DNA of 63,906 bases from Candidatus Omnitrophota bacterium (GCA_018823795.1 JAHJGZ010000007.1:1-63906), one strand, 5' to 3'. Numbered from the stretch's first letter, positions 1 through 41,158 are shown. Numbers and translations are program-made. Notes: generated from the letters alone by a model not told the origin.

Positions 1-109
1 CAACAATAGCTCCCTCATTATGTTGGCTGAAGCGTTTCCGTAAATCACTCGTAAAACCGGTATAAAAACGATTATCTTTTTTACTTCGTAATACGTATAT
101 ATAATACAT
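1..109 (-). CDS. GIY-YIG nuclease family protein (5' part; runs off left edge)
   Basis: Not in the ORF track. Manual translation from ATG at 109 gives MYYIYVLRSKKDNRFYTGFTSDLRKRFSQHNEGAIV, matching the YxYxL...YxG.T.DL..R..QHN pattern of small GIY-YIG proteins. Confidence 0.85.
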   Translation of the reverse strand, partial: MYYIYVLRSKKDNRFYTGFTSDLRKRFSQHNEGAIV

Positions 110-115
110 AGTGTA

Positions 116-320
116 TCTCTAACGGGGCTGGCTTCGCACTCAATTTACGGAACGTACGTGACGTAAATTGTAGGCCGTTAGGCCGTCTGCGCCTGCCTGC
201 CTGCCGGCAGGAATTAACCCCCCACCAATTATTTCAAATCATTCACATACCCCTCACATAATTGGTGTGGGGGTAAGTTCCGATATACGACTTAGCTTCA
301 TTACTCTCGCTAAGTCGTAT
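116..320. repeat. Cluster of short palindromes/REP-like hairpins
   Basis: TCTCTAACGGGG (116-127); CAATTTACG..CGTAAATTG (141-170); CCTGCCTGCCTGCCGGCAGG (192-211); ACCCCCCACCAAT..ATTGGTGTGGGGGT (217-274); ATACGACTTAGC..GCTAAGTCGTAT (285-320). Confidence 0.75.
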
Positions 321-4242: not shown

Positions 4243-4249
4243 CCTCGTT

Positions 4250-4294
4250 TCCCGCTTCGCGGGATAATTCCTGCCTGACGGTAGGCAGGGCAGG
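4250..4294. repeat. REP-like palindromes upstream of btuF
   Basis: TCCCGCTTCGCGGGA (4250-4264) then CCTGCCTGACGGTAGGCAGG; same families as at 192 and 2163. Confidence 0.7.
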
Positions 4295-4454
4295 CGGCCT
4301 TATAACTTACGCTCACTTCATCCATCAACACACTCTTCATTATCCCCCCCATGTTTCTTTCAGGTACGCTATCCCGATACAATACTTCGTATTGTACGGG
4401 ATTAATTCCGGCATATCAGTTATGTCGTTACACTTCATAACTGATGCCATCATT

Positions 4455-4498
4455 AAAAAAGAGCTCTTACTTCCACAATAAGGAAATAAGAGCTCTTT
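4455..4498 (-). terminator. Intrinsic terminator (B12 riboswitch expression platform)
   Basis: AAAGAGCTCTTATTTCC-loop-GGAAGTAAGAGCTCTTTTTT on the minus strand. Confidence 0.75.
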
Positions 4499-4571
4499 GA
4501 GTCGTTTGCATTGATTTAATCTTTCCTTTTTATCGAAGGCGTCCTTGACATTGAAAAAATGCCAAGTGTCT

Positions 4572-4825
4572 TTTGGGTCTCCTGACTTACGGATCATTTT
4601 ACTAATCGTACCTTCCCGGAATGAGCAAGTAAAAAGGAAAAAAGATAAAGGATAAAACAAATACAGCCTTTATTTGTTTTTCCTTTTACCTTTATCCTTT
4701 ATCCTTGTCTCCCCCAGTGGCCATTACGACGTTCATCCCCGTTCACAGTGGCGCAACCGCGTGGGATTTTCACCCAACTTCCCCGTATATCAAAAATCAT
4801 AAGTGGCGGAAATTATACCTCTTTT
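4572..4825 (-). ncRNA. Cobalamin (AdoCbl) riboswitch containing an ~90-nt heptamer-repeat hairpin insertion
   Basis: Minus strand has GGGAA-GTTGGGTGAAAATCCCAC-GCGGTTGCGCCACTGTG...GCCACTG...GGGAAGG...AGTCAGGAGACC; lies upstream of btuFCD. Ends are approximate. Confidence 0.85.
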
Positions 4826-4852
4826 GCCGCTTCGTGTACATCCTTTTTTATG

Positions 4853-6733
4853 CTACTGACTATGTCGAAACGCAGGCGGAAATAAAGAGTCTCCATGTTC
4901 TTCGTGTGCCCGCTCAAGCCGCTTTTTTTGTTCATCAAGTATGGTAAATAAAATATCAGGTACATTCTTCTTATGTTTTGTATAAAATTCTTTAATTCGC
5001 GCAATCTTCGCACAATTTTCCAAAACCCTTATAGAAAACTGCTTCAGATAATCCTCTTCTGTATATTCTTTATTGAGTACTTCCTTAAATAATCGTTTCA
5101 GATCTTCATATTCCGGAATAGATCCGGTAGGCAATTTAATCGCATCGACATCCCCATGGACACGCAGTTCCATCCATTTTATCCATACACGCTTGTCCTC
5201 CATAGCGGTTAAATAGTTCCCCTCTTTATCTTTCTGGAAGTAGTTGACGAGAAAGATACGCGGCGGTTTCTCAATCCCTTTAACAATCTGTAAATTGTTA
5301 TTAATATACGTTCCCAGATAAATTGAAAGAAAGTCAAGGTTCGACATCGGATTTATTTGCCGGACCCCTTCTTTTCCTAAGGTCGCCGCTGTTGTCTCCG
5401 ATTCCAGTGAAGCTCCCATGGTTATGATCCCATGCTCCCAGTTAAATGCTTCTTGTACGGGTGGTAAAATACTCGAATCTCTGCCGCCATAAATAATACC
5501 GCGTACGGGAACGCCGTGTGGATTATCTAATTCACTATCAGTATTGCTGAGATCATATAAACTAATGGTGTAGCGCGCATTTTTATGTGCAGAGGGAATC
5601 TCTTTCCCGTCAGCATCTTTTTTCCCCTTATGCCATTGTCCAGAAAAATTTATCCCCTTTTCAGGAGCCGGTCTTCCGTCACCTAACCAGCGGGGATGAT
5701 TATCATCACAGACCAATACATTAGAAAAAATAGCCTGTCCCGGCGTTGAAAGAACCTTCCAAATAACCGGATCATCCTTGTCGTTAACATCCTGAATAAT
5801 GCCGAAGATCCCACACTCAACATTGACTCCATGCAAGGCGTCCTTATATTTTCGTAAATAGGCTATATCGTCACCGATAATCGTTTCTCCGGGTAACATT
5901 GCTGTCGATGTTTTTCCGCACGCACTGGGAAAGGCACCACTAAAATAGGTTTTCCTGCCCTTTGGCCCATGTACTGCCATAAGAAACATGTGTTCAGCAA
6001 GCCATCCTTCACGAGATGCCTTCTGAATAGCCAGCCGCAGGGAAAGCTTCTTAAGACCAACGGTATTGCCGGCATATTGCGTATTTGTACTGTATACAAT
6101 ATCCTCTTCAATATCAATGTAGACTCTCCGCTTATCAACATTCTTACTCACACCATTTTCTAAATCGCCAGCACTGTGCACATAGCGGAAAAATGCTTCT
6201 GATGAGCCAATTTCTTTAAACTGTTCATACCCAGTTCGACAGAGTATGTATTCTGAATGCCCGACATAGCTTGAATCGGTAAGCTGAACACAGGGAATAG
6301 AAAACTCAGACCCCGTCGGGCCAAGACAAAAGAACAACACATACATCTCTTTTCCAACCATTATATCCTTGAGAATCGAACGAATTTCTTCTATTCCCGG
6401 CCCTTTTTCTATTGCATTTGGTACTGACGTTAAATCAGCTCCGTGTGGTAAAAGATACTTCGTTTGTGCTTTATCTCGCGCTTGATCCTGCGCCCCGTCA
6501 AAATGGATCGTATGCCCCTTAATGGCAAGACTTTTTTCTTCTCCATTCTTCAACGCTTGTTGTCGTATATAGGCCCTATCTTCCTTTGCATCTGTACCTA
6601 CATAGATTGAATTCGGGTTACATAATTCGGCATAGGATGCAACAAATTCATGTAGTTTCGTATTCCGAAGCGCCATAAGCTTCTCGTAGCTTGCCGGGTT
6701 GCATTTTTCTTTTAATAATTCGTTATTCGTCAT
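4853..6733 (-). CDS. pckG: Phosphoenolpyruvate carboxykinase (GTP)
   Basis: YAGNTVGLKK, WLAEHM, AFPSACGKT, GDDIAY and IIYGGR motifs. Confidence 0.95.
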   Translation of the reverse strand: MTNNELLKEKCNPASYEKLMALRNTKLHEFVASYAELCNPNSIYVGTDAKEDRAYIRQQALKNGEEKSLAIKGHTIHFDGAQDQARDKAQTKYLLPHGADLTSVPNAIEKGPGIEEIRSILKDIMVGKEMYVLFFCLGPTGSEFSIPCVQLTDSSYVGHSEYILCRTGYEQFKEIGSSEAFFRYVHSAGDLENGVSKNVDKRRVYIDIEEDIVYSTNTQYAGNTVGLKKLSLRLAIQKASREGWLAEHMFLMAVHGPKGRKTYFSGAFPSACGKTSTAMLPGETIIGDDIAYLRKYKDALHGVNVECGIFGIIQDVNDKDDPVIWKVLSTPGQAIFSNVLVCDDNHPRWLGDGRPAPEKGINFSGQWHKGKKDADGKEIPSAHKNARYTISLYDLSNTDSELDNPHGVPVRGIIYGGRDSSILPPVQEAFNWEHGIITMGASLESETTAATLGKEGVRQINPMSNLDFLSIYLGTYINNNLQIVKGIEKPPRIFLVNYFQKDKEGNYLTAMEDKRVWIKWMELRVHGDVDAIKLPTGSIPEYEDLKRLFKEVLNKEYTEEDYLKQFSIRVLENCAKIARIKEFYTKHKKNVPDILFTILDEQKKRLERAHEEHGDSLFPPAFRHSQ

Positions 6734-6832
6734 TAGAACATCCTTTTTTCTTGTGATTTAAGTATCCGAGAATTGTGTCGTTATAAAATAGTATCAAAAA
6801 ATTGAAATTTATCAACTACTATTTCAAAACGC

Positions 6833-7465
6833 CTAAAATCCTTCCTCCTGTAACAATTGTGCCGTAAGAGAAGATTTCTCTCCTTTTAAATGTTGTTTAA
6901 CATACTTCGATAGAATATCGACTTCAATATTCACCCGATCATTAACTTTCAAAAGAGTGAATGAGGTGTTTTTAAAGGTATGAGGAATAATGACAACGGA
7001 AAAAGAATCGGAGCTCATCTCCTGGATAGTTACACTCACACCATCAACTGCCACCGACCCCTTCATCACCATGTTGTTTCGTATCGCAGGTGAAACACCG
7101 ATGTGTAAAAAAATATCCTTTTTATTCTTTACAATTCTTTTTATCTGTCCCATCCCATCAACATGCCCCTGAACCCAATGCCCGCCAAGCCGGTCACCAA
7201 TACGTAATGCTCGTTCTATGTTTACGAAAGCGCCTTTCTTGAGTAACCCTATAGTAGTCACCGCAAGCGTCGGTTGTGATGCATCAGCAAAAAACATATT
7301 TTTCTTAAAACCGGTAACCGTAAGGCATACACCGTTCACTGCAATACTTTCCCCTATTTGAAAGTCGTTCCACAGTGTATCAACAGCAATGCACACCTCA
7401 TGCATATCAGATTTTGTCTTTTTCGCCTTCAAGGTACCAACCTTTTCAATTATCCCCGTAAACAT
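6833..7465 (-). CDS. ribE: Riboflavin synthase (alpha)
   Basis: MFTGIIE start; SIAVNGVCLTV and GGHWVQGHVD motifs. Confidence 0.95.
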   Translation of the reverse strand: MFTGIIEKVGTLKAKKTKSDMHEVCIAVDTLWNDFQIGESIAVNGVCLTVTGFKKNMFFADASQPTLAVTTIGLLKKGAFVNIERALRIGDRLGGHWVQGHVDGMGQIKRIVKNKKDIFLHIGVSPAIRNNMVMKGSVAVDGVSVTIQEMSSDSFSVVIIPHTFKNTSFTLLKVNDRVNIEVDILSKYVKQHLKGEKSSLTAQLLQEEGF

Positions 7466-7497
7466 CGATCCTCCAGTGAAACATAATGATTATACGG

Positions 7498-9033
7498 TTA
7501 CGCTGCTTCTTCATCAGATTTGTTTAGACTGAGGTCATACAGATAGAGTGATGCACCAATAGTCTTCATTGAACCAACCCTTTTGCCTAAAATATCTAAA
7601 TAATATAACATAAGCATTTCTTCATCAACGCCTGACTGACTATAGACGCCACAAAACACCATCCACACTCGTTTTTTGCCACGCAATAGAGATAACCGAT
7701 ACCAATATTGGTTCCAATCATCATAGCTGGGCATTATACAATGGATATTCTTTTCTTGCTTTTGTATAGCATTATATCTTTTAATATAGTATTGAAACGG
7801 AGCATTAGCCCAATGATACAGACATATATAATCACCCTCTCTAATATGCTCGTCGAGAACAGCCATAACCTCCCGTACCTCCCAAGCACGATATTTATTA
7901 ACAACCTGTTGACTCGTTGTAATCAAAGAAGGCAAAATCAACAATCCTCCTATTATTATTCCTATTTGAAACCGGTTTCGCGAAAGAAGTGTAACAATAA
8001 AATAAAACCCATTTGCTATGATTAATAACGCTAGAGGAACTAAAAATAATAACAATCTGCCACTAAACGGATATTTATGTAAACTGTATGCTATTAAAAC
8101 AAATGGTACTGGTGAAAGCACAATAAGTAAAATCCTCTTTCTCCTTACATACATTGCAATGCACCCTATTAAGAATAGGGCAATCCCAAGACCATGAAAA
8201 TATATTCCTAAAGGATCTGAAAAAAACGATACCAAAAGGTCTGAAAAGATTTTTATATCAGCAAAAGTTTTAAACGGAAGGGGCACAAAATGCCAATCCC
8301 AATAATTTACCAAATAATTAAGTTTTTCGATAAATCTAAGAGATACTACATAGGTGCTGATGAAACTTATTATCCACATGAGCCCTATCGGCACAAGCTG
8401 GGCCATTTTTCTCCACTGTTTTTTATAAAAAGATATGACAAAAAAAGCACATCCAATACCAGCTAAAACAAATACGGCCGGATACGAAAAATAAATTGCA
8501 CATGCACCAATCGCACTATAAAAAATCCCCCGAGAGACAGTCATCTCCTTTTCTTGTATGTGTGCACACATAATCAATAGGAGTAATGTCACGACCACAT
8601 CACTCATATACGGTTTTGCTTCGATGGAATAATTAATTAATTGCGGGGAAAGTGAAAATAAAAAAACTGCAAAAGGAACGGTCCATTTGATGAGATACTT
8701 TTTCGCGACTGTATAGAATAAAAAGAGTGACACAATACCACATACAAAGGGCCACAATCTAAGAAAATACTCATTATTGATAAATGTCTGAATACTACTT
8801 TTTTCAACAAAGACAAAACCGATCGGATAGTGGACTTTTTGTATAAGGGACAAAAAGGAAAGTCCCCCAAAATTTAATTCATTTGCGAACCGTGCTTCAT
8901 CTCCACTCAGTGATCTATTCGAAATAAAGGCATATGTTCTCAGGAAACATCCAAGGTATATTATTATCCGACAGAGTACTGTTGAATGAAGCGCTTGTAT
9001 CATTAATTCTTTACATCGAGATTGCGTAGACAC
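7498..9033 (-). CDS. Polytopic GT-C (family 39/PMT-like) glycosyltransferase
   Basis: RSLSGDEA loop after the first TM, YSIEAKPY motif, many TM helices. Confidence 0.7.
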   Translation of the reverse strand: MSTQSRCKELMIQALHSTVLCRIIIYLGCFLRTYAFISNRSLSGDEARFANELNFGGLSFLSLIQKVHYPIGFVFVEKSSIQTFINNEYFLRLWPFVCGIVSLFLFYTVAKKYLIKWTVPFAVFLFSLSPQLINYSIEAKPYMSDVVVTLLLLIMCAHIQEKEMTVSRGIFYSAIGACAIYFSYPAVFVLAGIGCAFFVISFYKKQWRKMAQLVPIGLMWIISFISTYVVSLRFIEKLNYLVNYWDWHFVPLPFKTFADIKIFSDLLVSFFSDPLGIYFHGLGIALFLIGCIAMYVRRKRILLIVLSPVPFVLIAYSLHKYPFSGRLLLFLVPLALLIIANGFYFIVTLLSRNRFQIGIIIGGLLILPSLITTSQQVVNKYRAWEVREVMAVLDEHIREGDYICLYHWANAPFQYYIKRYNAIQKQEKNIHCIMPSYDDWNQYWYRLSLLRGKKRVWMVFCGVYSQSGVDEEMLMLYYLDILGKRVGSMKTIGASLYLYDLSLNKSDEEAA

Positions 9034-9052
9034 TCTCTTTCTCCTTAATTAT

Positions 9053-10165
9053 TCAATATATCGGATATCCCTCAAATAAATAATCATTTCCGCTTTTCGA
9101 ATAAGAAACATTTCGAAAGCGAATTGCTTTCTTTATACATGCCACGCCATTTCCTTCAACTGAAGTCGGCGCGTGCATACCGCCAATGATCAACGGAGCA
9201 CAAAACAAAAACATTTTATCAACTAATTTTCGTTCAAAAAAAGAAGCGGCCACATTCCCCCCACCTTCAACTAAAACGGTTCCTATATGAAAATCGACTA
9301 ATCTTTTCAACACAAAGGCTACATCTATCTTTTGCCGGTACAAAGGGGCTTGAATGACTGAAATTCCCTTTTTTTGATACAATGCTATTTTACGAGAAGA
9401 AACTTTTTTAGAAACAACAATAATTACCTGATCACGTGTGGCATAGTGAAATACCTTCTTAGTAAGAGGAATTTCTCCTTGTGTATCTAAAATAACCCGC
9501 GCCGGATTCTTCGTGGATGAAACAAATCGCACCGTAAGGGATGGATCATCATAAAGCACCGTTTGTTTTCCGACTAAAACAGCATCAACATTTTTTCTTA
9601 GTTGATGCACACCGGTGCGCGACGTAATACCGCTAATCCACTGTGAATCGCCCGTTCGTGTTGCACTTTTCCCATCAAGGCTCTGAGCCATTTTGACGGT
9701 CACAAAGGGGCGTTTTTTACTCATACGAGTAAAAAAGGCTTCATTCTGTTTTTTTATCTCATTTTTGAGCAGACCAACTGAAACAGCTATATTATTTTTT
9801 CGTAATATACGAACACCGCGCTTGTGATGCTGTGGATTTGGATCAAAGCTTCCAATAACAACTTTTTTAATGCCGCTTTGTATGATCGCCTCAGTACATG
9901 GCGGTGTTTTTCCCTGCGTCGAACAGGGTTCTAACGTTACATATAATGTTGCGCCGTTGGCCGCTCGCCCCGCCCGTTTCAGTGCAACTATTTCTGCATG
10001 AGGCCCGCCAAAAAATGCATGATAGCCACGAGAGCGGATGACGCCATCCTTCACGACAAGCGCACCGACTAACGGATTAAGCTTTGTATGCCCTCTTCCG
10101 CGTTCGGCAAGCCAGAGTGCTTCACGCATGAAGGCTCCATCACGAGTTTTTTGTGATATTTTCAT
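9053..10165 (-). CDS. ribD: Bifunctional riboflavin deaminase/reductase
   Basis: HAE, LYVTLEPC, SLDGK and VEGGG motifs. Confidence 0.95.
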   Translation of the reverse strand: MKISQKTRDGAFMREALWLAERGRGHTKLNPLVGALVVKDGVIRSRGYHAFFGGPHAEIVALKRAGRAANGATLYVTLEPCSTQGKTPPCTEAIIQSGIKKVVIGSFDPNPQHHKRGVRILRKNNIAVSVGLLKNEIKKQNEAFFTRMSKKRPFVTVKMAQSLDGKSATRTGDSQWISGITSRTGVHQLRKNVDAVLVGKQTVLYDDPSLTVRFVSSTKNPARVILDTQGEIPLTKKVFHYATRDQVIIVVSKKVSSRKIALYQKKGISVIQAPLYRQKIDVAFVLKRLVDFHIGTVLVEGGGNVAASFFERKLVDKMFLFCAPLIIGGMHAPTSVEGNGVACIKKAIRFRNVSYSKSGNDYLFEGYPIY

Positions 10166-10559
10166 GGTGATTGATATGATCGAGGACACCGTTTACAAAT
10201 TTTCCTGAATCTTCTTGAGAATATTTCTTTGCAATATTAACCGATTCATTAATCGTCACTTTGGGGGGAATATCAGGCATAAAAAGCAGTTCATAGGCAC
10301 CAGAGCGCAGGATATTTTTATCCAAGATCGCCATACGTGAAAGATCCCAGTTCTCGGTATGACGTACGATAGTCTCATCAAGTATCTTTGTCTGAGCAAG
10401 AACTCCCTGAATAATCCGCTCAGCAAATGCTTGCACTTCTGCATCCACAGGATTATGTTCCCAAAATTGTTCTCGGATACTATCAAAATCTTCTTTGACT
10501 ACTTCGAGCTGATATAAAACCTTTAGTGCGCATTCACGTGCAATTGTTCTCTTCCTCAT
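10140..10559 (-). CDS. nusB: Transcription antitermination factor
   Basis: RTIARECAL, INESVNIAKKY and KFVNGVLD motifs; follows ribH. Confidence 0.95.
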   Translation of the reverse strand: MRKRTIARECALKVLYQLEVVKEDFDSIREQFWEHNPVDAEVQAFAERIIQGVLAQTKILDETIVRHTENWDLSRMAILDKNILRSGAYELLFMPDIPPKVTINESVNIAKKYSQEDSGKFVNGVLDHINHHENITKNS

Positions 10560-10581
10560 AAAAATGTCCTTACGATAATGG

Positions 10582-11055
10582 TTATTTTTTCTCAAAAGCG
10601 GAAAGGAGATTTGCCATTTCTATAGCAGACTCGGCTGCGTGAGCTCCTTTATTACCACTCTTGGCCCCCGCACGGTCGATTGCCTGCTCTAAGGTATCAG
10701 TTGTGATGACACCAAAAACCACCGGTATTCCTGTGTCAAGAGAAATGCGCGCAATGCCCTTTGCAAGCTCACTGGACACATATTCAAAATGCGCTGTTTC
10801 ACCACGAATCACTGCCCCCAGTGCAATCACTGCATCAAATTTGTTACTCTGCGCCATTTTTAAACAGGCAAGCGGAACTTCAAAAGAACCGGGAACCCAT
10901 ATCACTTCAATGCTGTTATCCGCTACGCCGGAGCGCATAAGACGGTCAATAGCACCATCCAAAAGGCGTTTCGTAATAAATTCGTTAAAACGAGAAACAA
11001 CAAGTCCAAAACTTTTTCCTTTACCGGTCAACGTACCTTCATATATCTTTGCCAT
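10582..11055 (-). CDS. ribH: 6,7-dimethyl-8-ribityllumazine synthase
   Basis: [12 protein letters not shown] and [13 protein letters not shown] motifs; GGAGG RBS. Confidence 0.96.
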
Positions 11056-11072
11056 ACGACCTCCTTTGGTTT

Positions 11073-11107
11073 AAAAAGATAAAAGTTAAAAGATAAAAGT
11101 TAAAACA
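11073..11107. repeat. Heptamer array, downstream flank of four-helix-bundle gene
   Basis: AAAAGAT AAAAGTT AAAAGAT AAAAGTT AAAACAA. Confidence 0.8.
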
Positions 11108-11108
11108 A

Positions 11109-11489
11109 TTACACATCTTTACGAAAATGTACTTTCTTAGATATACTAGCAAAAATACTTTTTAACTCGAATGACTCTTGTAATAATCTTTCCAACTCTT
11201 TGCCTTCGGTGATCTCTACTGCCTCAATAATCCTTAACCAATAGTTGCTTTCCTTTGACTCCCGAAAACAAATACTAATCTTATATTTAAAATCATCTTT
11301 ACTAAAGGCTCCTTCTGCTTCCTCATAATTTGCCCCTATTGACGTAGCGGCTTTTGCGAGTTGATATCGAATAATATCATTTTCTTTTGATAGTCTTATT
11401 TTCTTTAAAAATCTTATTACCGCTACTGCAAAATCAAATGTTCTTTCCTTTAAATCCCTTCCTTTCGTACCGTTTTTTTGCCCTTTCAT
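11109..11489 (-). CDS. Four-helix-bundle protein (23S rRNA intervening-sequence protein family)
   Basis: DLKERTFDFA..QL..AATSIGANYEEA....SKDDF..K..I..RE..E..YWL pattern. Confidence 0.9.
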   Translation of the reverse strand: MKGQKNGTKGRDLKERTFDFAVAVIRFLKKIRLSKENDIIRYQLAKAATSIGANYEEAEGAFSKDDFKYKISICFRESKESNYWLRIIEAVEITEGKELERLLQESFELKSIFASISKKVHFRKDV

Positions 11490-11507
11490 CTCGTGTTCCT
11501 TGTATAT

Positions 11508-11563
11508 TTTTTATCCCTTGTCTTTTTTCTTTTTTTATCCTTCATCCTTTATCCCTTATCCTT
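11508..11563. repeat. Heptamer array, upstream flank of four-helix-bundle gene (inverted relative to 11073-11107)
   Basis: Minus strand AAGGATA AGGGATA AAGGATG AAGGATA...AAGGGATAAA, beginning at the ribBA stop codon. Confidence 0.8.
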
Positions 11564-12753
11564 TACAGTAAGTGTCCTAGTTTTTCTTTTTTTGTTTGTA
11601 AATATTTTCTATTATAAACTGTAGATTTTACGTGAAGCGGAATCCGTTCAACAACTTCCAGTCCAAATCCTCCAAGTCCGATAATTTTTCGGGGATTATT
11701 TGATAATAATCTGATCTTCTTGACCCCGAGTTCGACAAGAACTTGCGCTCCTATCCCGTAATCACGCAGATCCGGCTTAAATCCTAACCGTTCGTTTGCT
11801 TCAACGGTGTCCATCCCCTTATCCTGCAGTTCATACGCTTTAATCTTATTAATAAGCCCGATTCCTCGGCCTTCTTGACGAAGATACAGAACGATGCCGT
11901 TACCCTCACGATTGATCATATCCATGGCAGCATAGAGTTGTTCTTGGCAATCACAACGCAGGGAACTTAATACCTCACCCGTAAAACATTCAGAATGGAC
12001 CCTGACAAGCATAGGGTCTTGTGTAATGGTTCCTTTAATCAATGCAATATGTTCTTTAGTATCAATAAATGACTGAAATGCAATAATTTTCCATTCACCA
12101 AAACGTGTCGGAAGAATTGCTTCTGAAACACGCTCAACTAATTTATCAAACGTACGCCGGTATTCAATTAATCGGGCAATGGTACTTATTTTTAAGCCGT
12201 GTTTTTTTGCAAAAATGAGAAGATCATCCATCCGTGCCATTGATCCATCATCATTCATAATTTCACAAATCACCGCTGAAGGACGAAGCCCTGCAAGACG
12301 GGCTAAATCAACGCTTGCTTCTGTATGACCAGCACGGACAAGCACCCCCCCTTTTTTCGCTCGCAAAGGAAAAATATGTCCCGGCACCGTCAGATCCGAG
12401 GAACTATATTGAGGATTTGCCAAAATATCAACCGTGCGTGCACGGTCTGATGCAGAGATACCGGTGGTAATACCCGCTTTCGCATCAACTGAAACGGTAA
12501 AGGCAGTATTGAAACTATCCTCATTCCGTTCCACCATATCTTTCAATTCAAGCGCTTGAAGTCGTTCTTCTGTTACGGGCACACAAATAAGCCCGCGGCC
12601 GTATTTTGCCATAAAATTTATTTTTTCCTTATCCACATGCTGCGCGGCAAAAATAAGGTCCCCTTCGTTCTCCCGTGATTCATCGTCGGTAAGAATGACC
12701 ATCTTTCCTTGCTTGATATCTTCTAGTATTTCTTCTATTGAGTTCAATTCCAT
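11563..12753 (-). CDS. ribBA: Bifunctional DHBP synthase/GTP cyclohydrolase II
   Basis: [27 protein letters not shown] and QEGRGIG motifs. Start set at MELNSIEE. Confidence 0.96.
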
Positions 12754-13195
12754 GATTACACAGATTTTTAAAAAGATTACACGGATTACATGCTGTATCT
12801 TTTCACCTGACAACTTTTATTGCTAAAATTAATTAATAATCCTACTTTAAGGTGTGACGCTCTAAGATATGACCGTATCTGATACTTAAAAACATCTGGC
12901 ATATAGCCCACCACCGCCTTTATTTCTACTATTACTTTATTCTCAACAACTAGATCGACAACGCAATAGCCAACTTTTCTTTTTATATATGACATATCAT
13001 ATCGCTTCTCGGTTTCATAGGACAATCCTTCGTCAGCAAAAGCAAGGAGAAGCGCTTTGTGGTATAACTTTTCGCTAAATCCCGGCCCTAATTCAGAATG
13101 AACTTTATAACAACATGCAATGATGCGTTCCGTTAAAGAATCTCTGTTAGTTTTATTCATAATCTAGGTAATCTTTTTCTAATCTTTCTAATCAT
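12752..13195. mobile_element. Putative inverted-repeat-bounded GxxExxY element
   Basis: Left arm ATGATTACACAGATTTTTAAAAAGATTACACGGATTA (12752-12788). Right arm, reverse-complemented, ATGATTAGAAAGATTAGAAAAAGATTACCTAGATTA (13160-13195). Confidence 0.6.
12786..13160 (-). CDS. GxxExxY protein (PD-(D/E)XK-like)
   Basis: [32 protein letters not shown] and GLLINF motifs. Confidence 0.9.
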
Positions 13196-13196
13196 C

Positions 13197-13238
13197 AAAA
13201 AAAAAGAGACCTGAGGACAATCCTCGGGTCTTTTTTTT
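13197..13238 (-). terminator. Intrinsic terminator of FMN riboswitch
   Basis: AGACCCGAGG-ATTGT-CCTCAGGTCT followed by a T-run on the minus strand. Confidence 0.8.
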
Positions 13239-13497
13239 TATCTTCTCCCATCCAGACTATACTGTCGGCTTCAGAATTACACTGAATCAAGCTAAAGCAT
13301 GATTGCACAGATTAGAAAAAGATTACATAGATAATCCCTCTTTTCTTACTGCTTAATCATCCTCGCGCTTCGCGGGCTTTCACCGCCGGTAGGGAATAGC
13401 AAATTCAATTACAAATTAAAAATTACGAATTCAAAATTAATTTTGAATTGCTCATTTTGAATTTTTCATTGAGCTCGCATCACCCATCCCCGAAGAT
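13239..13497 (-). ncRNA. FMN (RFN) riboswitch with two repeat-hairpin insertions
   Basis: ATCTTCGGGGATGGGTGA[82 nt]ATTCCCTACCGGCGGTGAAAGCCCGCGA...TGATTCAGTGTAATTCTGAAGCCGACAGTATAGTCTGGATGGGAGAAGA, upstream of the rib operon. Confidence 0.9.
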
Positions 13498-13529
13498 TTA
13501 TGTACATCTTTGTGTAAAAGAGCGTGTTG

Positions 13530-13558
13530 TTTATATCAATAAACCAACATTATGTCAA
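13530..13558 (-). promoter_or_regulatory. Putative sigma70 promoter for rib leader
   Basis: TTGACA-17 nt-TATAAA. Confidence 0.6.
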
Positions 13559-13700
13559 GTAAAGAAAGATACCAGCAACGCATGTTACCGGTATACCCTG
13601 TTACATTCATTACTGAACGATATGATTATTTACTGTACCACTTTACGGATTATATCTAACCCTTTATATAAGAATAAGATACATCAAAATAATTAAACCA

Positions 13701-15290
13701 TTATTTCTCCTGATTGTATTTTTTCGGCAATCGTGTTTCTAAATCCTTTTCCTTCTGATAGCGACGAATAAAATCTAAAAATTCAGGTTGTACAAAACAG
13801 GCAAGGTCCGGTGCTCGCCTGCCACATGAGGCAACAGCCTTATTCCAATAGTGAAAAGACGCATCATAGTGCTCGGTTTTATAATAATGGCACGCCAAGT
13901 AAAGGTACGCGAGCTCACAGGCAGGGTTAAGCTCGATTGCTTGCTTAAATAACTCGACAGCGTGTTCTTTTTCATCAAGAGCGTAATAATCAAACCCAAG
14001 GCTGAGGTATCCCATCCACGCCTTTGGATTCTTTTTAATTAATGTTTCCCAAAAAGTAAAGCGATTACGATATCCCTGAATTAAAGCAACCGATGTCAAC
14101 GCCATATGAAATGTTATGACAATAACCATTGCAACGAGAAATGTTCGTACTTCTCTTTCATATCGAATATACAACCTATCATATATCGTGTCCCATAAAA
14201 AGAGCACACTTGAACAAATCAATAGAAAGAGTGCTGGTGTTGACAGATAGGTAAAATGATCGGCAACATAGGAAAACCGAATCATAGGGAATACTTTTAA
14301 AAATCCCAAGACGGGAAAGATAGAAATACCATAAAACAGGAAAAGTGCTACCACTCCTCGACCAAGAATTTTGCGGTAATAAAAAAGGAGAAAGGCAGCG
14401 ACGATAACACTGCACGGAAAAAGCCACTGCCACAGGACTGAAACGTTAATATCCCAGTTAGGATAAAAAGTCATAAAATTAATCGGGAGGCATATCTGAT
14501 ATATATAAAACCAGAATATCCTTCCCGCAAGAATAACACGTTCGAAAATTGAAAGCTCCCAGTCAAATTTATACGCCCCGACTTTATACAATTCTAAATA
14601 CGATGTGTGTAGTGCACTGATGAGACCGATGAACAATAAGGGTAATGAAAGCAAAATATTCTTTCGTCGAACGGTTCCCGTTCGCCACCATGCGTACAGC
14701 ACCGGAACAAAGACAAAACACGCCGAAATAGATTTACTCAGCAGCGCGCACACAAAAAAGATGCACATACACGTATAGTATCTATATTTTTCTGTCTGAT
14801 TAAATTTAATATACTGTGTTGTGGCAGATAAAAAAAAGAGAAGGCTCAAGAGATTCTTTCGTTCCGTAATCCATGCTACCGTTTCGACTTGAATAGGATG
14901 CACAGCAAAAAGTAAAGCAACAAAAAAAGCAACGCGGGGATAGAGGCATTGTATAATAAAAAAAAGGAGACATGCATTTATGATATGCAGTAATACATTG
15001 ACCACATGATAGCCGCACGGATTATCGTGCCACAGCGCATATTCAATCAAAAAGGATGTAAAGGTTATGGGGTAATACTGAGGTGTTTTATGCGAAAACC
15101 AAATATCGTGCAATCCGTCAGGACTTTTAATGGTGTCATTTGAATACACATATGAGTCATCGTCCCAGATAAAATCATTATAGAGAGAAGGAAGATAGAC
15201 AAGAAACGCGCAAAAAATAATGAAGACAATCTGAAATTTCTTCGAATGAAATACGGGGCTTAGCAGTACACTACTCTTATTGGACACCAT
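13701..15290 (-). CDS. TMTC-like GT-C membrane glycosyltransferase with C-terminal TPR
   Basis: FIWDD, YYPIT, HPIQVETVAWITERK and ADHFTY motifs; TPR tail. Confidence 0.8.
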   Translation of the reverse strand: MVSNKSSVLLSPVFHSKKFQIVFIIFCAFLVYLPSLYNDFIWDDDSYVYSNDTIKSPDGLHDIWFSHKTPQYYPITFTSFLIEYALWHDNPCGYHVVNVLLHIINACLLFFIIQCLYPRVAFFVALLFAVHPIQVETVAWITERKNLLSLLFFLSATTQYIKFNQTEKYRYYTCMCIFFVCALLSKSISACFVFVPVLYAWWRTGTVRRKNILLSLPLLFIGLISALHTSYLELYKVGAYKFDWELSIFERVILAGRIFWFYIYQICLPINFMTFYPNWDINVSVLWQWLFPCSVIVAAFLLFYYRKILGRGVVALFLFYGISIFPVLGFLKVFPMIRFSYVADHFTYLSTPALFLLICSSVLFLWDTIYDRLYIRYEREVRTFLVAMVIVITFHMALTSVALIQGYRNRFTFWETLIKKNPKAWMGYLSLGFDYYALDEKEHAVELFKQAIELNPACELAYLYLACHYYKTEHYDASFHYWNKAVASCGRRAPDLACFVQPEFLDFIRRYQKEKDLETRLPKKYNQEK

Positions 15291-35304: not shown

Positions 35305-35409
35305 ACCCCGTGAGAGTGTGATCCTAAAAAGGATATCTATACTAAAAAAATATTCATGATGTGACGTCATGTAATAAATCTATTTAAAAAAGTCGCTCTC
35401 TAACGGGGT
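35305..35409 (+). mobile_element. MITE-like unit (105 bp), intergenic, inverted relative to pilin-leader copies
   Basis: ACCCCGTGAGAG...CTCTAACGGGGT ends; interior homologous to 39113-39221; TTTAC at both junctions. Confidence 0.75.
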
Positions 35410-37096: not shown

Positions 37097-38350
37097 TCAA
37101 TTGAGTATTACATCATAGCTTCCCGTTTCATCCGGCGACAACACGCCCGGTAGCCGCACTTCAAAGCACTGGGTCACATTCAATCCACGGGGATATACCG
37201 TAATCACTTTTTGGATATATGTTTCGCCATTCCCCGCAAGGTCATCAAGACCGGCTAAATCATCTTGATGGCAAAATTCGCCCTGCTGCGCCGAACCTTT
37301 TGGCGTTGGTACAACCGATACTAAATAAAATCCTGCGGGGAGATTAATAACCCTCACCGCACCTGAATCATACGTTATATCGGTACCCGCCGGCCCTCCG
37401 GCAGCTCCACCACCTGCATTTGATACAAAATAGTAGTGAGCGTTAGAACCAAAAGTAGTTATGTCTACCCGATATATCTGATGAAAATAGTAAGCAGTCT
37501 CTGCTGCATGATTTAATCGGAGTAATGTTCCGTTGGCATCTTTGATAAAGATTGCTATTTTATTTCTCGTATAGGCATAGGTACTAGTATCCATTAGATA
37601 GGTAATATTCTGCTCAAAACGGTCGGCACCCCCACCATCGGTTAATGAGCCAGTAGGGGGTATACTGTAATACCCGTCACTTCCGTAACTTTCAATTTTA
37701 CGTTCATAATCACTACCAAACTCATTCCATCGAAACCGATATTCCTTTCCCCATTCATCCATTAAAAAATCGTGTATACCTGCCTCGGTAATCCCCTTCG
37801 GTTCTGCCGTTAATTCATACATTACAAGCGCAACTCCATCCCGATCATCACCTGCCGGCCAACCATGATGCAGCCCAAAATAGCCAAAACCTGCCTGATG
37901 GCCAGTCTGAACTTCTTCAGGCTCTCCTACCATTGCATGAGCTACTTTTTCCATCTACGTCATCGTCTTTTTGTATCTATTCGCATCAATCAAGTCATGC
38001 GATAATGACGCACCCGCAAGAAGAACCACGGTCATAATGACAAATCCTATAAGTAATTCTAAGAGGCTGAACCCCGTTAGAGAACGATCTTTAAATAAAC
38101 ATTTTTTACCTACAATAATATTATGAATATTTTTTTTAGTGGAGACACTCTTTTGGCAAGGGGTATACTCTAACGGGGTGAACCCGGTTAGAGAACGATC
38201 TTTAAAGAAAGATTTTGTAAATCTCATAAGACTATAACTATTTTTTTTAGTATATACCCTTTTTTTACTAGGGACGCACTCTAACGGGGTGAACCCTATT
38301 ACAGCGCGTTTTTTAATAACAAGATTTTGTAAAGTATCTGTTTTCATCAT
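37097..38350 (-). pseudogene. Prepilin-like gene interrupted by in-frame TAG (37955-37957)
   Basis: ORFs 37955-38500 and 37097-37954 are in the same frame and abut. GFSLLEL...YKKTMT*MEKV aligns with paralog YKATVKEMKQ. Likely start at MMKTDT. Confidence 0.75.
38071..38290 (-). mobile_element. Two tandem 109-bp MITE-like units (38071-38179, 38182-38290) in a prepilin leader
   Basis: Terminal inverted repeats ACCCCGTTAGAG/CTCTAACGGGGT; 111-bp period equals 37 codons. Confidence 0.8.
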
Positions 38351-38357
38351 GAACTCA

Positions 38358-39266
38358 CTATATCTCAAGAGCATTAAGAGCGCCCGGTAAACGCATAACA
38401 ACAACATGAACCCGACTTGCTCCTTTTGGATAGACAACAATATCTTGAGAAAAAGTAGTATTCCCTTCATTAAGACAATTTTTCCAATTAGTACCGCCAC
38501 TGCCCGAATTATCCTGAACCGTAACGACCACGGGATGTGTTCCTACATCAACACCCGTTACACTAAAGATACCCGCACTATATGCTGCAGCCCCACCAGA
38601 CAACGTTACCGAGGTTATCTGGTAATTCGATTGAGTATCATTCCCCCGCAAAAGGTTTCCTTTTATATCGTATACCATAATCCTTACAATGTTGTTTGTA
38701 TATAACAACTTATTAATGGTAAGGACGATATCTTCATCGAAAGGATCACCGCTCGCTGCACCATCAAGGCCATCCCGCCCACGACTGGTCACCGTAATCA
38801 GGCCAGCTGCATCAGCATACACATAATCCCTTCCCCATGCATCTTTATCATAGTCAGTATTTGCACGAAAATAACTTGAAATATTACTTAATGCAGCCGG
38901 CCAAGAACCATTATCTCCCACATAGCCAAAATCTACCCGCTGTTTTCCTTCAACCGCATTCTCATCGCCGACCAAAGCTTTCTTTATCTGTTTCATTTCT
39001 TTTACTGTTGCTTTATACTTGGATACTTCAACACTATCCCCCATACCCCGGATACCGACCGCACCAACAATACCAATAATAACAAGGACTAAAATAAATT
39101 CTATAAGGGTGAACCCCGTTAGAGAACGACCTTTTAATAAATATTTCTTACCGACAATAACATCGTGAATATCTTTTTTAGCATAGATATTCTTTTGAGG
39201 GAGATTACACTCTAACGGGGTGAACCCCGTTAAGGAAAAAACTTTTTTCTTCATCAGCTGTTTCAT
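38358..39266 (-). CDS. Prepilin/GspG-like pseudopilin with repeat-expanded leader
   Basis: SLTG|FTLIEFILV, DFGY and DAWGRDY motifs. Confidence 0.8.
   Translation of the reverse strand: MKQLMKKKVFSLTGFTPLECNLPQKNIYAKKDIHDVIVGKKYLLKGRSLTGFTLIEFILVLVIIGIVGAVGIRGMGDSVEVSKYKATVKEMKQIKKALVGDENAVEGKQRVDFGYVGDNGSWPAALSNISSYFRANTDYDKDAWGRDYVYADAAGLITVTSRGRDGLDGAASGDPFDEDIVLTINKLLYTNNIVRIMVYDIKGNLLRGNDTQSNYQITSVTLSGGAAAYSAGIFSVTGVDVGTHPVVVTVQDNSGSGGTNWKNCLNEGNTTFSQDIVVYPKGASRVHVVVMRLPGALNALEI
39113..39235 (-). mobile_element. 109-bp MITE-like unit (39113-39221) plus adjacent lone end
   Basis: Same terminal inverted repeats; junction palindrome TCTAACGGGGTGAACCCCGTTA. Confidence 0.8.
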
Positions 39267-39314: not shown

Positions 39315-40442
39315 TTATAATTCCTTAACATCGACAACACCGGGCAACCGAAATTCAATATAATTGGGAACTTTTGGACTTTTTGGATATATGGGAACCC
39401 ATTGAGAAAGAGAACTATTCCCCCGCATTAAATCATCTCTATGATCTATTTTTCCTGCTGAATTCTCACCCGGCCACGACGAATAAGTGGTAGGATACAC
39501 TACTATGCGATAAAAACCGCAGGGAATAAAATATTCTGTCGCTCCTTGAACATTCGCAAATATACCATGAGAATAAAATAATTCATACCCGCTCGCTCCC
39601 TCAGTCTCAAGGATAGTATTACCATCAACATCGATAACATCCACCTGGTAAATCTGATGATCATAATTGGCACCTGCATAACCGCGAAGGATTGTCCCAT
39701 TCACATCCATGACGTTCATAAGCAAAAGATTTTCTGTATAGAGATCCTGGCGTATGATAATGTGAAAGTCTCCATAAAAAATCGTTGTCGTCCCACCCGC
39801 TGCACCATCTCTGCCTAAACATTTAATCTCAACTGCATCATAATCGGTTCCTCCTAACGTAATAGTTTCTGTGGTACTATACACAAAATCATTTCCCCAG
39901 GCATCCTGTTTATAGCTGTCAGCCACATTGGCAGCACCGATTGTTTCTTTTTGAGGTGCAGGAGGAAGGAAATCTGCTAGCCCAGAATTTGCGGGGGTGA
40001 CCGCATCATGCCCATCAGTAGGAACCTCATCACCATTTTCTGGATTAGGAAATACTCCATACCGCTCCACAAAGCCGAAATCGACCCGCGTGCCTAAATT
40101 ATTAAGCCGCTCATCACCGATAAGAGCCCGTCGTATGGTAACCATGGTATGGCAACTCTCGACATATTTTTGCGCATCAATGGCATACACCGCGTAGCGA
40201 GACCCCGTAATAGCAATAATCGAAAGAATAATGAGAACAAGAAGAACTTCAAGAAGGGTAAACCCCATTAGAGAACGATTTTTAAATATACATTTTTTAC
40301 CTATAATAATATCATGAATGTTTTTTTTAGTAGGGATACTTTCTTGGCCAGGGACATACTCTAACGGGGTAAACCCCGTTAGAGAACGATTTTTAAAGAA
40401 ATATTTTGTACATCTCATACTAGTATGACCACTTTTTAGCAT
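39315..40442 (-). CDS. Prepilin/GspG-like pseudopilin with repeat-expanded leader
   Basis: SLMG|FTLLEVLLV, RVDFGF and DAWGNDF motifs; start codon lies within a repeat unit. Confidence 0.8.
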   Translation of the reverse strand: MLKSGHTSMRCTKYFFKNRSLTGFTPLEYVPGQESIPTKKNIHDIIIGKKCIFKNRSLMGFTLLEVLLVLIILSIIAITGSRYAVYAIDAQKYVESCHTMVTIRRALIGDERLNNLGTRVDFGFVERYGVFPNPENGDEVPTDGHDAVTPANSGLADFLPPAPQKETIGAANVADSYKQDAWGNDFVYSTTETITLGGTDYDAVEIKCLGRDGAAGGTTTIFYGDFHIIIRQDLYTENLLLMNVMDVNGTILRGYAGANYDHQIYQVDVIDVDGNTILETEGASGYELFYSHGIFANVQGATEYFIPCGFYRIVVYPTTYSSWPGENSAGKIDHRDDLMRGNSSLSQWVPIYPKSPKVPNYIEFRLPGVVDVKEL

Positions 40443-40479
40443 TCACATTTTTGCTTTTCGTATCACACTCTAACGGGGT
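40262..40479 (-). mobile_element. Two tandem MITE-like units (40262-40370, 40373-40479)
   Basis: Same terminal inverted repeats; 109 and 107 bp. Confidence 0.8.
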
Positions 40480-40618: not shown

Positions 40619-41158
40619 CTAGCCACCGGTTCCTTCATACTGAAATGATACTTCAATATCATCAGTACCCCCGGTACTGGTAATGGTAATTGCACCATCA
40701 GTCGTTGCATACCCATAGTCAACTCCCCATGCATCTTCTAAAGAATCAGCGGTGCCATTACTATCATTATCTTTGTCATCAACATACGGACCATACCATC
40801 CAGTGCCTGAAACGGGATCTATCGCACCGTCCGCAGGAGTATTGACCAGTTCACTTAATCCGGTCGGAACTCGATACATGTGCGGTATAAACCCATGAAA
40901 CTGTGTATCAACATTGCCAGCAATAGCAGAAATAAGTTCCGCCATTTCTGCCTTTGTAGCCTGTATCCGCGCGGTTTCTTGTAAATCCCCAAATTTAGGG
41001 ATGAGCACACTCGCTATGATGCCGATTATTACCATAACCATAACACACTCGATAAGGGTAAACCCGGTTAAAGAACGATCTTTAAAGGAATGTTTTTGTG
41101 ATATGATCGATTGGTTTTTTCCGGCACGTGGTACCATGGTGTGTGTTCTCTTCTGCAT
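40619..41158 (-). CDS. GspG-like prepilin (degenerate unit end in leader at ~41062-41090)
   Basis: FKDRSLTG|FTLIECV, W.GPY and DAWG motifs. Confidence 0.8.
   Translation of the reverse strand: MQKRTHTMVPRAGKNQSIISQKHSFKDRSLTGFTLIECVMVMVIIGIIASVLIPKFGDLQETARIQATKAEMAELISAIAGNVDTQFHGFIPHMYRVPTGLSELVNTPADGAIDPVSGTGWYGPYVDDKDNDSNGTADSLEDAWGVDYGYATTDGAITITSTGGTDDIEVSFQYEGTGG

Follow-up and report, generated by a model that had tools for sequence, protein, structure and literature searches.

A contig of 63,906 nucleotides from a Candidatus Omnitrophota bacterium (GCA_018823795.1 JAHJGZ010000007.1:1-63906), referred to below at its full length as the window, carries in its riboflavin operon two small cassettes, in each of which a single gene is enclosed by inverted arrays of short repeat units. 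One gene encodes a four-helix-bundle (4HB) protein of the 23S rRNA intervening sequence (IVS) type, and the other a GxxExxY protein of the PD-(D/E)XK nuclease fold. Hairpins built of such units occur without a gene in two riboswitch aptamers of the same strand, and a third small gene, for a GIY-YIG nuclease, belongs to a repeat family that likewise includes gene-bearing and gene-less forms. We interpret these elements as IVS-type stem-loop cassettes that live outside rRNA, an interpretation to which we assign a probability of about 0.5. The first-pass annotation of this DNA, made from the sequence alone, had proposed three small-gene elements, each with filled and gene-less hairpin forms in safe sites. 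Profile matches, flanking repeats and the hairpins in aptamers and prepilin genes bear out the three elements and their two forms, and the gene-less forms are indeed located at the tips of aptamer helices, in short co-oriented spacers and in codons of prepilin leaders. The pattern is real and wider than that annotation had seen; it is a variant of themes known from IVSs, from the REPIN-RAYT systems (hairpin doublets of repetitive extragenic palindromes, REP, and their REP-associated tyrosine transposases) and from MITEs (miniature inverted-repeat transposable elements), and we infer its function and mechanism. The features are listed in Table 1.

The 4HB gene of the window matches PF05635 with 55.5 bits (cut-off 33.8) and TIGR02436 with 78.6 bits (cut-off 24), and beside it the array on the upstream side contains TTTATCC in 4.6 copies at 11534-11565 according to Tandem Repeats Finder (TRF). 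The structural model of its product consists of four helices (pLDDT 95.9) and superimposes on 2rld (BT_0352) with a template modeling (TM) score of 0.89 and on 2gsc (XCC0516) with 0.86. Both crystal entries contain 5 chains, and a pentameric toroid is reported (PMC4990558). The model also resembles Avd of the diversity-generating retroelements (DGRs), with TM scores of 0.75 to 4dwl and 0.73-0.76 over Avd alone and within the DGR ribonucleoprotein, and one 4HB paralog of the same genome matches the PHROG 'Avd protein of DGR' at 4.9e-12. The likeness to Avd is in fold and family; unlike Avd, however, the window 4HB gene has no reverse transcriptase and no template/variable repeat pair beside it, its neighbors being ribH and ribBA.

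The window is contig C94 of an assembly (G000; 3.19 Mb, 250 contigs, 39.6% G+C) in which profile searches yield 13 hits to TIGR02436, 4 to TIGR04256 and 13 to PF01541, the last including 10 small open reading frames (ORFs). The 4HB paralogs of this genome (n=13) are 10-42% identical to the window copy, and the heptamer differs from one paralog to the next, the downstream array being the reverse complement of the upstream one in most. The AAGGATA heptamers, which the first-pass annotation had taken for the repeat of the 4HB family, thus turn out to be the type of this one copy, each of the 13 paralogs having a heptamer of its own; the broader proposal of one repeat type per family holds for GxxExxY and GIY-YIG but not for 4HB, where the arrays change from copy to copy.

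The same architecture recurs far beyond this genome. Of 81 genomes sampled from the phylum, 59 contain TIGR02436 (at least 194 matches). At 29 such loci (the best match of each of 29 other genomes), the median inverted-repeat score of the flanks is 39 versus 16 for controls; 25 of the 29 score above 23, the second-highest shifted-window control, and 14 exceed the highest control (39). The heptamer is specific to each of the 29 loci, one of which has an 8-mer instead. Among 35 plasmid records matched by tblastn, 10 were picked for taxonomic spread, and 8 of these loci (Geminocystis, Nostoc punctiforme, Picosynechococcus, Stanieria, Calothrix, Riemerella, Azospirillum and Gemmatirosa) score above their own controls, so that the plasmid carriers span cyanobacteria, Bacteroidota, Alphaproteobacteria and Gemmatimonadota. 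When all 52 4HB loci are taken together, a period of 7 fits best in 40 of 52 flanks upstream and in 40 of 51 downstream, compared with 36 of 190 control windows.

The repeat unit follows the protein. Within 4HB subfamilies at 60-70% identity, the heptamers have a common core with 2-3 free positions (TAAGnnn, GTAYnnn, CAGCnnn, GGGTCnn), and the similarity of heptamer profiles rises with protein identity (Spearman 0.38, reached by 0 of 999 label permutations; 30 of 42 chromosomal loci with upstream lag-7 identity of at least 0.64, 12 being dropped). Tentatively, and with less than even confidence, we suggest that pentamers of the 4HB IVS/Avd-like proteins might read tandem heptamers in a sequence-specific way, with ~4 core nt and ~3 variable bases for each subunit, and might co-evolve with their own inverted arrays; they could then cause much of the heptamer excess of bacterial genomes, including the STRR (short tandemly repeated repetitive) sequences and the GGGAATC repeats, and colonize operon spacers, tips of riboswitch helices and rRNA helices as one class, with GxxExxY and GIY-YIG proteins running parallel partnerships.

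Across the source genome, arrays with at least 3 copies number 102 for period 7, and 37, 23 and 21 for periods 6, 8 and 9, respectively; all copy counts in this assembly are lower bounds because the repeats break it at contig starts (contigs C94, C156, C6 and C38 begin within a GIY-YIG element or AAAGATA arrays). After merging of period-7 and period-14 arrays, 40 of 136 have an inverted partner within 800 nt that scores above the 95% null. The gaps between partners fall into two classes, 0-87 nt, which are hairpins, and 268-764 nt, which enclose TIGR02436 genes, with the exception of a tandem gene-less pair on C78 and weak A/T-rich rows on C246 (gap 521) and C91 (gap 725). The C78 pair (10514-10851), of the size of a filled cassette and lacking a 4HB gene, resolved into two tandem gene-less hairpins. 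Neutral slippage of polymerases on 7-nt units, which would make the nearness to these genes incidental, is a further rival; slippage is the explanation given for the heptamer excess of many bacterial genomes (PMC4679880, PMC4692102), and heptamer number varies between Coxiella strains (PMC4990558). Slippage leaves unexplained, however, why arrays matched in inverted orientation flank one gene family on either side in at least 5 phyla, why the cores track the protein subfamily and why the 268-764-nt gaps mostly enclose 4HB genes; already disfavored by these findings, it is highly improbable.

Scoring the flanks of all 2576 crude ORFs of the genome for inverted repeats recovers the three families from a different direction: 11 of the top 41 scores belong to 4HB, GxxExxY or GIY-YIG genes. 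An alignment score was used for this ranking, RNAduplex energies having been abandoned because GC-rich flanks dominated them. Ranks 4 and 6 of 2576 are genes of the Y1_Tnp family (PF01797) with REP-like flanks, which serve as a positive control. Several labeled genes rank low, in some cases because the crude ORF overran the arrays, and the 4HB copies on C136 and C113 have no arrays. Ten other small high-scoring ORFs were considered as additional cargo families and rejected, being HD, HypA, SIS, CxxCxxCC or unassigned proteins. Of 18 gene-less heptamer hairpins that were catalogued, 7 fill a spacer between co-oriented crude genes, extending from 20 nt or less after the stop codon to 24 nt or less before the next start. 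Solo arrays of the AAAGATA/AAGGATA type seen in the window occur 25 times in the genome; arms matching some solo array are found at 7 of the 13 resident 4HB loci, compared with 8 of the 29 foreign loci.

The second cassette repeats the plan with a different protein and a different unit. The GxxExxY gene matches PF13366 with 112.5 bits and TIGR04256 with 117.6 bits (cut-off 35), and its translation contains the readable stretches GFSEKLY and D...EIK, which we take to be the PD-(D/E)XK motif residues (E, D and ExK). Its flanks rank 17th among the 2576 scored, and a 24-mer of the upstream arm has a 96% identical copy in the hairpin of the flavin mononucleotide (FMN) aptamer ~130 nt away (blastn, 13309-13332). 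The family is found in 10 of the 81 genomes of the phylum, and 8 of the 13 loci outside the source genome score above every control. GxxExxY arrays consist of units of ~10 nt, with a period mostly of 9-13, that have a common CRCRGA core in the variants CACGGAT, CGCGGAT, CACAGAT and CACTGAA. Inverted arrays beside GxxExxY genes of Bacteroides finegoldii and Bernardetia have this core too, and in Treponema it is present once per side; a Persicobacter copy has no clear units. For this family, 5 of 6 plasmid records were examined.

The gene-less forms are most conspicuous in the riboswitches. In the cobalamin aptamer, 90 nt occupy a site where the Rfam model has 6, forming a hairpin (-34.8 kcal/mol, z -6.12), and the syntenic aptamer of G001, the only genome of the same family that was compared, has a short loop at this site and scores 82.7 bits. 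The FMN aptamer is interrupted twice and, with 66.0 bits, falls just short of its gathering score (66.2); its counterparts in G001, where the aptamers are uninterrupted, and in G002, a genome of the same order, score 102.8 and 107.4 bits. The heptamer hairpin in the second FMN loop had not been distinguished in the first-pass annotation and was revealed by the aptamer alignment. All five gene-less hairpins tested fold better than shuffled sequences (z -2.97 to -6.12). A practical consequence for annotation is that aptamers interrupted in this way drop below Rfam thresholds, as the FMN aptamer does here. A gathering-threshold Rfam scan of the window reports only the cobalamin aptamer and no self-splicing host element. 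Elsewhere in the genome, a c-di-GMP-I riboswitch (60.3 bits) on contig C136 (L026, 427-546) is followed by a terminator-like hairpin and by a 4HB gene without clear arrays; this aptamer was considered as a further interrupted one, on account of a 41-nt loop where the model has 8, and set aside since the arrays are not clear. Cassettes lying between a riboswitch terminator and the regulated gene thus number two, the GxxExxY cassette after the FMN riboswitch and the C136 4HB gene after the c-di-GMP-I riboswitch.

The GIY-YIG family differs in organization. If 1 mismatch is allowed, the CCCCGTTAGA motif that ends its element is found 15 times in the window versus 2.16 expected, a number reached in 0 of 100 shuffles; together with the fold z-scores, this places the repeats beyond chance. 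In the source genome, the CCCCGTTAGAG family has fixed 18-nt inverted ends and 55 end pairs, of which 35 measure 30-110 bp, 14 measure 133-140 bp and 6 measure 211-282 bp. Five of the six largest pairs (263-282 bp) bear a gene, the sixth (211 bp, C73) covers a short unit, and ~49 are gene-less. The sole gene of the family encodes a GIY-YIG protein of 86 codons; the right end of the element lies inside the last codons of this ORF and continues as GGGGTAAAGGAGG ahead of the start of the next gene. The full copy on C89 weakly matches TIGR01453 (group I intron endonuclease) with 31.7 bits, below the cut-off of 56.05. The window contains six gene-less units of ~107 bp with the ends CCCCGTTAGAG...CTCTAACGGGG between 35306 and 40478, which show 78% mean column identity. 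Five of the six are in open frame within N-terminal extensions of prepilins, with 37 codons (111 nt) to each tandem unit. Translated from the coding strand, the ends of the unit give ..RSLTGFT and GFTPLE and adjoin the pilin motif GFTLIE; a motif of this type adjoins 10 of the 35 short CCCCGTTAGAG pairs in the genome. A pilin-like ORF that lacks a full unit (window 40619-41158) nevertheless contains ..SFKDRSLTGFTLIE, identical in its residues to the right end of the unit, which suggests either a leftover end or a unit end that imitates the leader. This family, and only this one, resembles MITEs with an autonomous partner, given its gene-less classes of ~105 and ~135 bp and its five gene-bearing pairs; unlike in MITEs, its gene encodes a GIY-YIG protein, which is no known transposase, and its right end is part of the coding sequence.

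These size classes, with gene-bearing and gene-less forms sharing the same ends, are what would be expected of a partnership at the DNA level analogous to REPIN-RAYT, in which the enclosed protein binds the ends, cuts or holds them, and moves or maintains hairpin doublets via single-stranded DNA, RNA pairing being a by-product. In REPIN-RAYT systems, each single-copy gene has its own inverted repeats, doublets of which are dispersed, inheritance is largely vertical, and the repeat flavor is read as a sign of co-evolution (PMC3116915). The elements described here are alike in that a gene is flanked by inverted repeats that are also dispersed as hairpin doublets in spacers, and each paralog has its own repeat type, like the REPINs of each RAYT. 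The true RAYT-like genes of the genome are flanked in the same manner. Nuclease folds are present in two of the three cargo proteins (GIY-YIG and PD-(D/E)XK), which speaks against the description 'transposase-free' in the first-pass annotation; these two proteins may themselves be mobility enzymes. The lack of a G-U over A-C excess among mismatches between the arms likewise favors a partnership confined to DNA. The differences from REPIN-RAYT are that the cargo is 4HB, PD-(D/E)XK or GIY-YIG and not Y1 (HUH), Y1_Tnp genes being found elsewhere in the genome with other repeats, and that the arms consist of tandem 7- or ~10-nt units instead of one 16-25-nt palindrome. However, the 4HB family has no known catalytic activity, the gene-less heptamer hairpins have no common loop sequence, and a constraint at the RNA level is indicated by the strictness of the sense orientation and by how exactly transcribed spacers and aptamer tips are filled. 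Neither an empty allele nor an excision joint was seen. A partnership acting on DNA only appears rather doubtful.

Among the closest known relatives of the cassettes, under the interpretation as IVS-type elements outside rRNA, are the 23S rRNA IVSs of Coxiella and Leptospira, in which a PF05635 gene likewise lies in a stem-loop of terminal inverted repeats, in sense within the host transcript. Gene-less short forms of such IVSs are known in Salmonella. The terminal inverted repeats of the Coxiella 23S IVS form a 28-bp stem with the S23p gene inside; immediately 5' of this gene are 2-3 GACAGAT heptamers in tandem, the first of which is where RNase III cleaves (PMC4990558). In contrast, the hosts here are mRNA spacers and riboswitch aptamers and not the tip of a 23S helix, and arrays are present on both sides with a heptamer specific to each copy. 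In rRNAs of the candidate phyla radiation (CPR), non-intron insertions with 23S_rRNA_IVP and GIY-YIG ORFs have been described that lie mostly at the tops or bases of stem-loops and include shorter ORF-less forms (bioRxiv 10.1101/2024.02.27.582315); these insertions reside in rRNA and, in the accessible text of the preprint, flanking arrays are not described. The 23S rRNA was not found in the present assembly, so that rRNA-borne cassettes lie outside the comparison.

A filled cassette comprises one small gene (an Avd-related 4HB 'IVS protein', a GxxExxY PD-(D/E)XK protein or a GIY-YIG nuclease) inside inverted arrays of short units and is placed in sense within a transcribed spacer, which may separate two cistrons or a riboswitch terminator from its gene; on this interpretation, the host operon would express it. 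The flanking units would most likely be the cognate nucleic-acid sites of the enclosed protein, as REPs are for RAYTs. Pairing between the arms is predicted to give the transcript a duplex of ~30 bp that encloses the gene, a stem of the kind cut by RNase III in the Coxiella IVS, which also has heptamers by its 4HB gene; an RNase III gene is present in the genome, and processing of this sort is inferred, as are binding of the proteins to the units and any mobility of the cassettes. The gene-less hairpins would be non-autonomous relatives that survive only where an additional helix is harmless. The predicted folds of the whole 4HB (511 nt) and GxxExxY (457 nt) cassettes show the complementary ends closing a stem around the insert, as in an IVS, in both the minimum free energy (MFE) and centroid structures (z -2.60 and -2.34). 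The pairing of the arms in RNA, proposed already in the first-pass annotation, is thus predicted by folding but leaves no excess of G-U over A-C mismatches; its strongest outside support comes from the experimental work on the Coxiella 23S IVS. Gene orientation is also in line with this interpretation: 4HB genes lie on the same strand as the upstream neighbor in 37 of 39 cases and as the downstream neighbor in 33 of 39, with 15 of 17 and 16 of 16 for GxxExxY, and 5 of 7 and 9 of 10 for small GIY-YIG genes.

A number of observations weigh against this interpretation. Mismatches between the arms comprise 37 G-U versus 30 A-C and 110 others at the 4HB loci (32 of 42 usable), and 9 G-U versus 14 A-C and 48 others at the GxxExxY loci (12 of 17 usable), and the sequences hence bear no sign that pairing within the sense transcript has been selected for. 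Co-orientation with neighbors, although far above the 50% of random insertion, is not above that of ordinary neighboring genes (2111 of 2546, 83%). The correlation between heptamers and proteins is a lead and no proof of recognition, because shared descent of a gene and its flanks can yield it. The 4HB copies without arrays on C136 and C113 are joined by one on C14 that has no downstream array, the 4HB locus of Nostoc PCC 7120 scores 16, at control level, and the arrays are direct instead of inverted on the Pseudanabaena galeata plasmid pPg_01 (L083, 400-1100), as are the units around a GxxExxY copy from Fusobacteria. Some heptamer families, for example TTCTGTC, have no 4HB partner in the assembly, and the loops of the gene-less AAGGATA hairpins are mutually unrelated, so these hairpins did not arise by simple copying of a single master. 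Mapping of contigs from four sequencing runs on window 4000-14000 revealed no empty allele. Three joints came under consideration as empty alleles, 13278>13370 (24 other letters), 13270>13370 and 10996>11557 (side 25), and were rejected for low likeness; we take them to represent conserved riboswitch or rib genes of other organisms. An independent groundwater metagenome from another study (X2) shows no difference from the window in the 4HB cassette, the cobalamin hairpin or the FMN hairpins.

The evidence from orthologous sites is divided. The first-pass annotation had named fixation at orthologous positions across relatives as the outcome that would speak against its proposal. In the nearest genomes compared, the window elements are absent: the ribH-ribBA spacer of G001 is 95 nt long and has no 4HB gene, and in G002 no GxxExxY gene precedes ribBA, where a heptamer hairpin of a different type, without a gene, is found instead. 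Among 80 ribBA loci from other genomes, none has a 4HB gene, and 5 have strong heptamer windows. Other 4HB cassettes, by contrast, are syntenic. L040 (G009) and L048 (G028), from the same taxonomic family, have neighbors with 76% and 49% amino acid identity, and their 4HB proteins are 41% identical with different heptamers, TAAGTnn versus GTACnnC, a difference that reflects either fast joint change or replacement of the cassette; the cassettes of L043, L056 and L057 are likewise syntenic. The syntenic sets span genera or families, which implies that these cassettes are not recently mobile, a further point against the interpretation as IVS-type cassettes. Such persistence agrees with the view that the cassettes are domesticated operon devices, that is, intercistronic processing or stability modules kept by the host, like REP hairpins that protect upstream mRNA, whose protein would tune its own and adjacent cistrons by binding one arm in competition with stem formation. 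The same view gains from arrays that take up the interval between one gene's stop codon and the ribosome-binding site or ATG of its successor, from GGGGTAAAGGAGG being supplied by the GIY-YIG right end before the next start codon, and from the two cassettes placed between a riboswitch terminator and the regulated gene. However, the cassettes of the window are missing from the same operon in G001, G002 and the 80 other ribBA loci and so are dispensable, the host operons are mutually unrelated (rib, pyrG, cas and polysaccharide genes), and the Coxiella gene is reported to decay (PMC4990558); domesticated operon devices are an unlikely explanation.

The heptamers themselves have a long record. 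Tandem 7-nt units in intergenic DNA, the hallmark of STRRs and heptamer simple sequence repeats, are what is found here. Vioque is said to have found, in 1997, STRRs inside the RNase P RNA gene of heterocystous cyanobacteria. In Xanthomonas, 70-75 convergent pairs of GGGAATC are able to form stem-loops, heptamer excess and convergent pairs being described for both Xanthomonas and Nostoc (PMC4692102), and TAACTGA repeats are known from Beggiatoaceae (PMC4679880). In contrast to the elements considered here, in which one protein family is involved and the heptamer differs per locus, STRR, GGGAATC and TAACTGA repeats are described without a link to 4HB proteins in the accessible parts of these sources. 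One paper notes the heptamers by the IVS gene of Coxiella (PMC4990558). No paper stating a general link of 4HB or GxxExxY genes to flanking inverted arrays was found in a search outside which most subscription journals lie. In thousands of genomes, 23S-IVS/S23p, GxxExxY and small GIY-YIG proteins bear annotations that assign no function, and reports of tandem heptamers, which go back to 1990, offer no mechanism. The rule that the gene lies between arrays whose unit tracks the subfamily gives each protein a candidate ligand, would connect rRNA IVSs with a broader class of elements residing in mRNAs and riboswitches, and may tie one protein family to the seven-base repeats whose excess was noted long ago.

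Table 1. Repeat elements and associated features of the window (positions in nucleotides from its first letter)
Feature	Position	Strand	Details
GIY-YIG gene fragment	8..109	-	PF01541 41.9 bits, model positions 1-34; truncated by contig start
CCCCGTTAGA end of GIY-YIG element	118..127	-	exact match; same end beside GIY-YIG genes on C130, C89, C178, C29
Cobalamin riboswitch aptamer	4554..4815	-	RF00174 62.8 bits, gathering score 31.5
Gene-less heptamer hairpin (AAAGGAT/TTTATCC arms) in terminal loop of cobalamin aptamer	4623..4712		TRF 4633-4656, 4677-4706
Downstream arm of 4HB cassette	11074..11105		AAAAGAT x4.6 (+ strand), TRF; pairs with upstream arm in MFE and centroid
4HB / 23S-rRNA-IVS-protein gene	11109..11489	-	between ribBA and ribH; PF05635, TIGR02436
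Upstream arm of 4HB cassette	11509..11565		TTTATCC-type heptamers (+ strand); TRF 11521-11565; inverted partner of 11074-11105
Downstream arm of GxxExxY cassette	12752..12795		GATTA-type units, read from sequence; ends at ribBA ATG
GxxExxY (PD-(D/E)XK) gene	12786..13160	-	between FMN riboswitch terminator and ribBA; PF13366, TIGR04256
Upstream arm of GxxExxY cassette	13160..13198		GATTAG-type units; TRF 13176-13193; arms pair in fold
Terminator-like hairpin and T run, likely expression platform of FMN riboswitch	13199..13240	-	read by eye from sequence
FMN riboswitch aptamer, twice interrupted	13236..13500	-	RF00050 over 13236-13416; 5' part to ~13500 by G001/G002 alignment
Gene-less GATTA-type hairpin in terminal loop of FMN aptamer	13290..13365 (approx)		68 nt vs model 10; z -2.97
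Gene-less heptamer hairpin (AATTACA/AATTAAA) in second FMN loop	13405..13475 (approx)		TRF 13407-13440; partner 13441-13470; z -3.05
Gene-less CCCCGTGAGAG...CTCTAACGGGG unit	35306..35408		just 5' of start of ORF 35410-36975; z -4.69
Two tandem gene-less ~107-bp units	38072..38289		in frame, prepilin N-terminal extension
Gene-less unit	39114..39220		in frame before GFTLIE, prepilin ORF 38358-39266; z -4.87
Two tandem gene-less units	40263..40478		within prepilin ORF 39315-40442

In the window, positions 3343-13500 are transcribed from the minus strand, in the order FMN riboswitch, terminator-like hairpin, GxxExxY gene, ribBA, 4HB gene, ribH, nusB, ribD, PMT_2 and ribE, followed further along the same stretch by the phosphoenolpyruvate carboxykinase (PEPCK) gene, the cobalamin riboswitch and a periplasmic binding-protein gene. 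The PMT_2-type gene, which lies within the riboflavin operon between ribD and ribE (7498-9033), encodes a membrane protein of 511 aa. Heptamer arrays directly after or before ribBA, and thus at the operon junctions that bear arrays in the window, are also seen in distant phyla, at L120 ~2705 (a metagenome-assembled genome, MAG, of Geobacteraceae), L160 ~2705 (a Nitrospirae MAG) and L151 ~1448; in the Geobacteraceae and Nitrospirae MAGs, they come straight after ribBA. Four tandem units of ~60 nt occupy 886-1126 on the minus strand of G001 (L013, C103), downstream of its FMN leader and at the contig end.

4HB genes inside cas loci have been reported (PMC3936711), and two are present among the plasmid loci. 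In Pseudanabaena, the gene lies between cas6 and cas4, with AGCTAAA ~16 times upstream and AGCCAAA ~10 times downstream, and in Picosynechococcus, a copy lies between cmr2 and cmr3. Such genes may be passengers of the cas operons and not Cas components. PADLOC gave zero hits for the four proteins submitted to it.

Within the source genome, the RAYT/REPIN-like Y1_Tnp genes are located at G000:C119:8104-8799 and G000:C220:1653-2318. CAGAAGA/TTCTGTC arrays occur in the coding sequence of a paralogous family by Y1_Tnp-like genes (G000:C151 ~9580-9850 and C162 ~2540-2600); a link of these arrays to RAYTs was considered and rejected, the arrays being inside the next ORF. The locus on contig C14 (L024, 2083 bp), on which a 4HB gene is preceded by 13 GAAATCT-type heptamers, is G+C-rich and possibly foreign to this organism (contamination estimate 5.6%). 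A further dispersed repeat, of the TTAATTC...CATTAAA type, lies at window 4370-4463 between the cobalamin riboswitch and the binding-protein gene. It has at least 15 more copies in the genome at 74-84% identity, copies are also present in G001 and G011, and several GIY-YIG elements are adjoined by sequences that resemble it.

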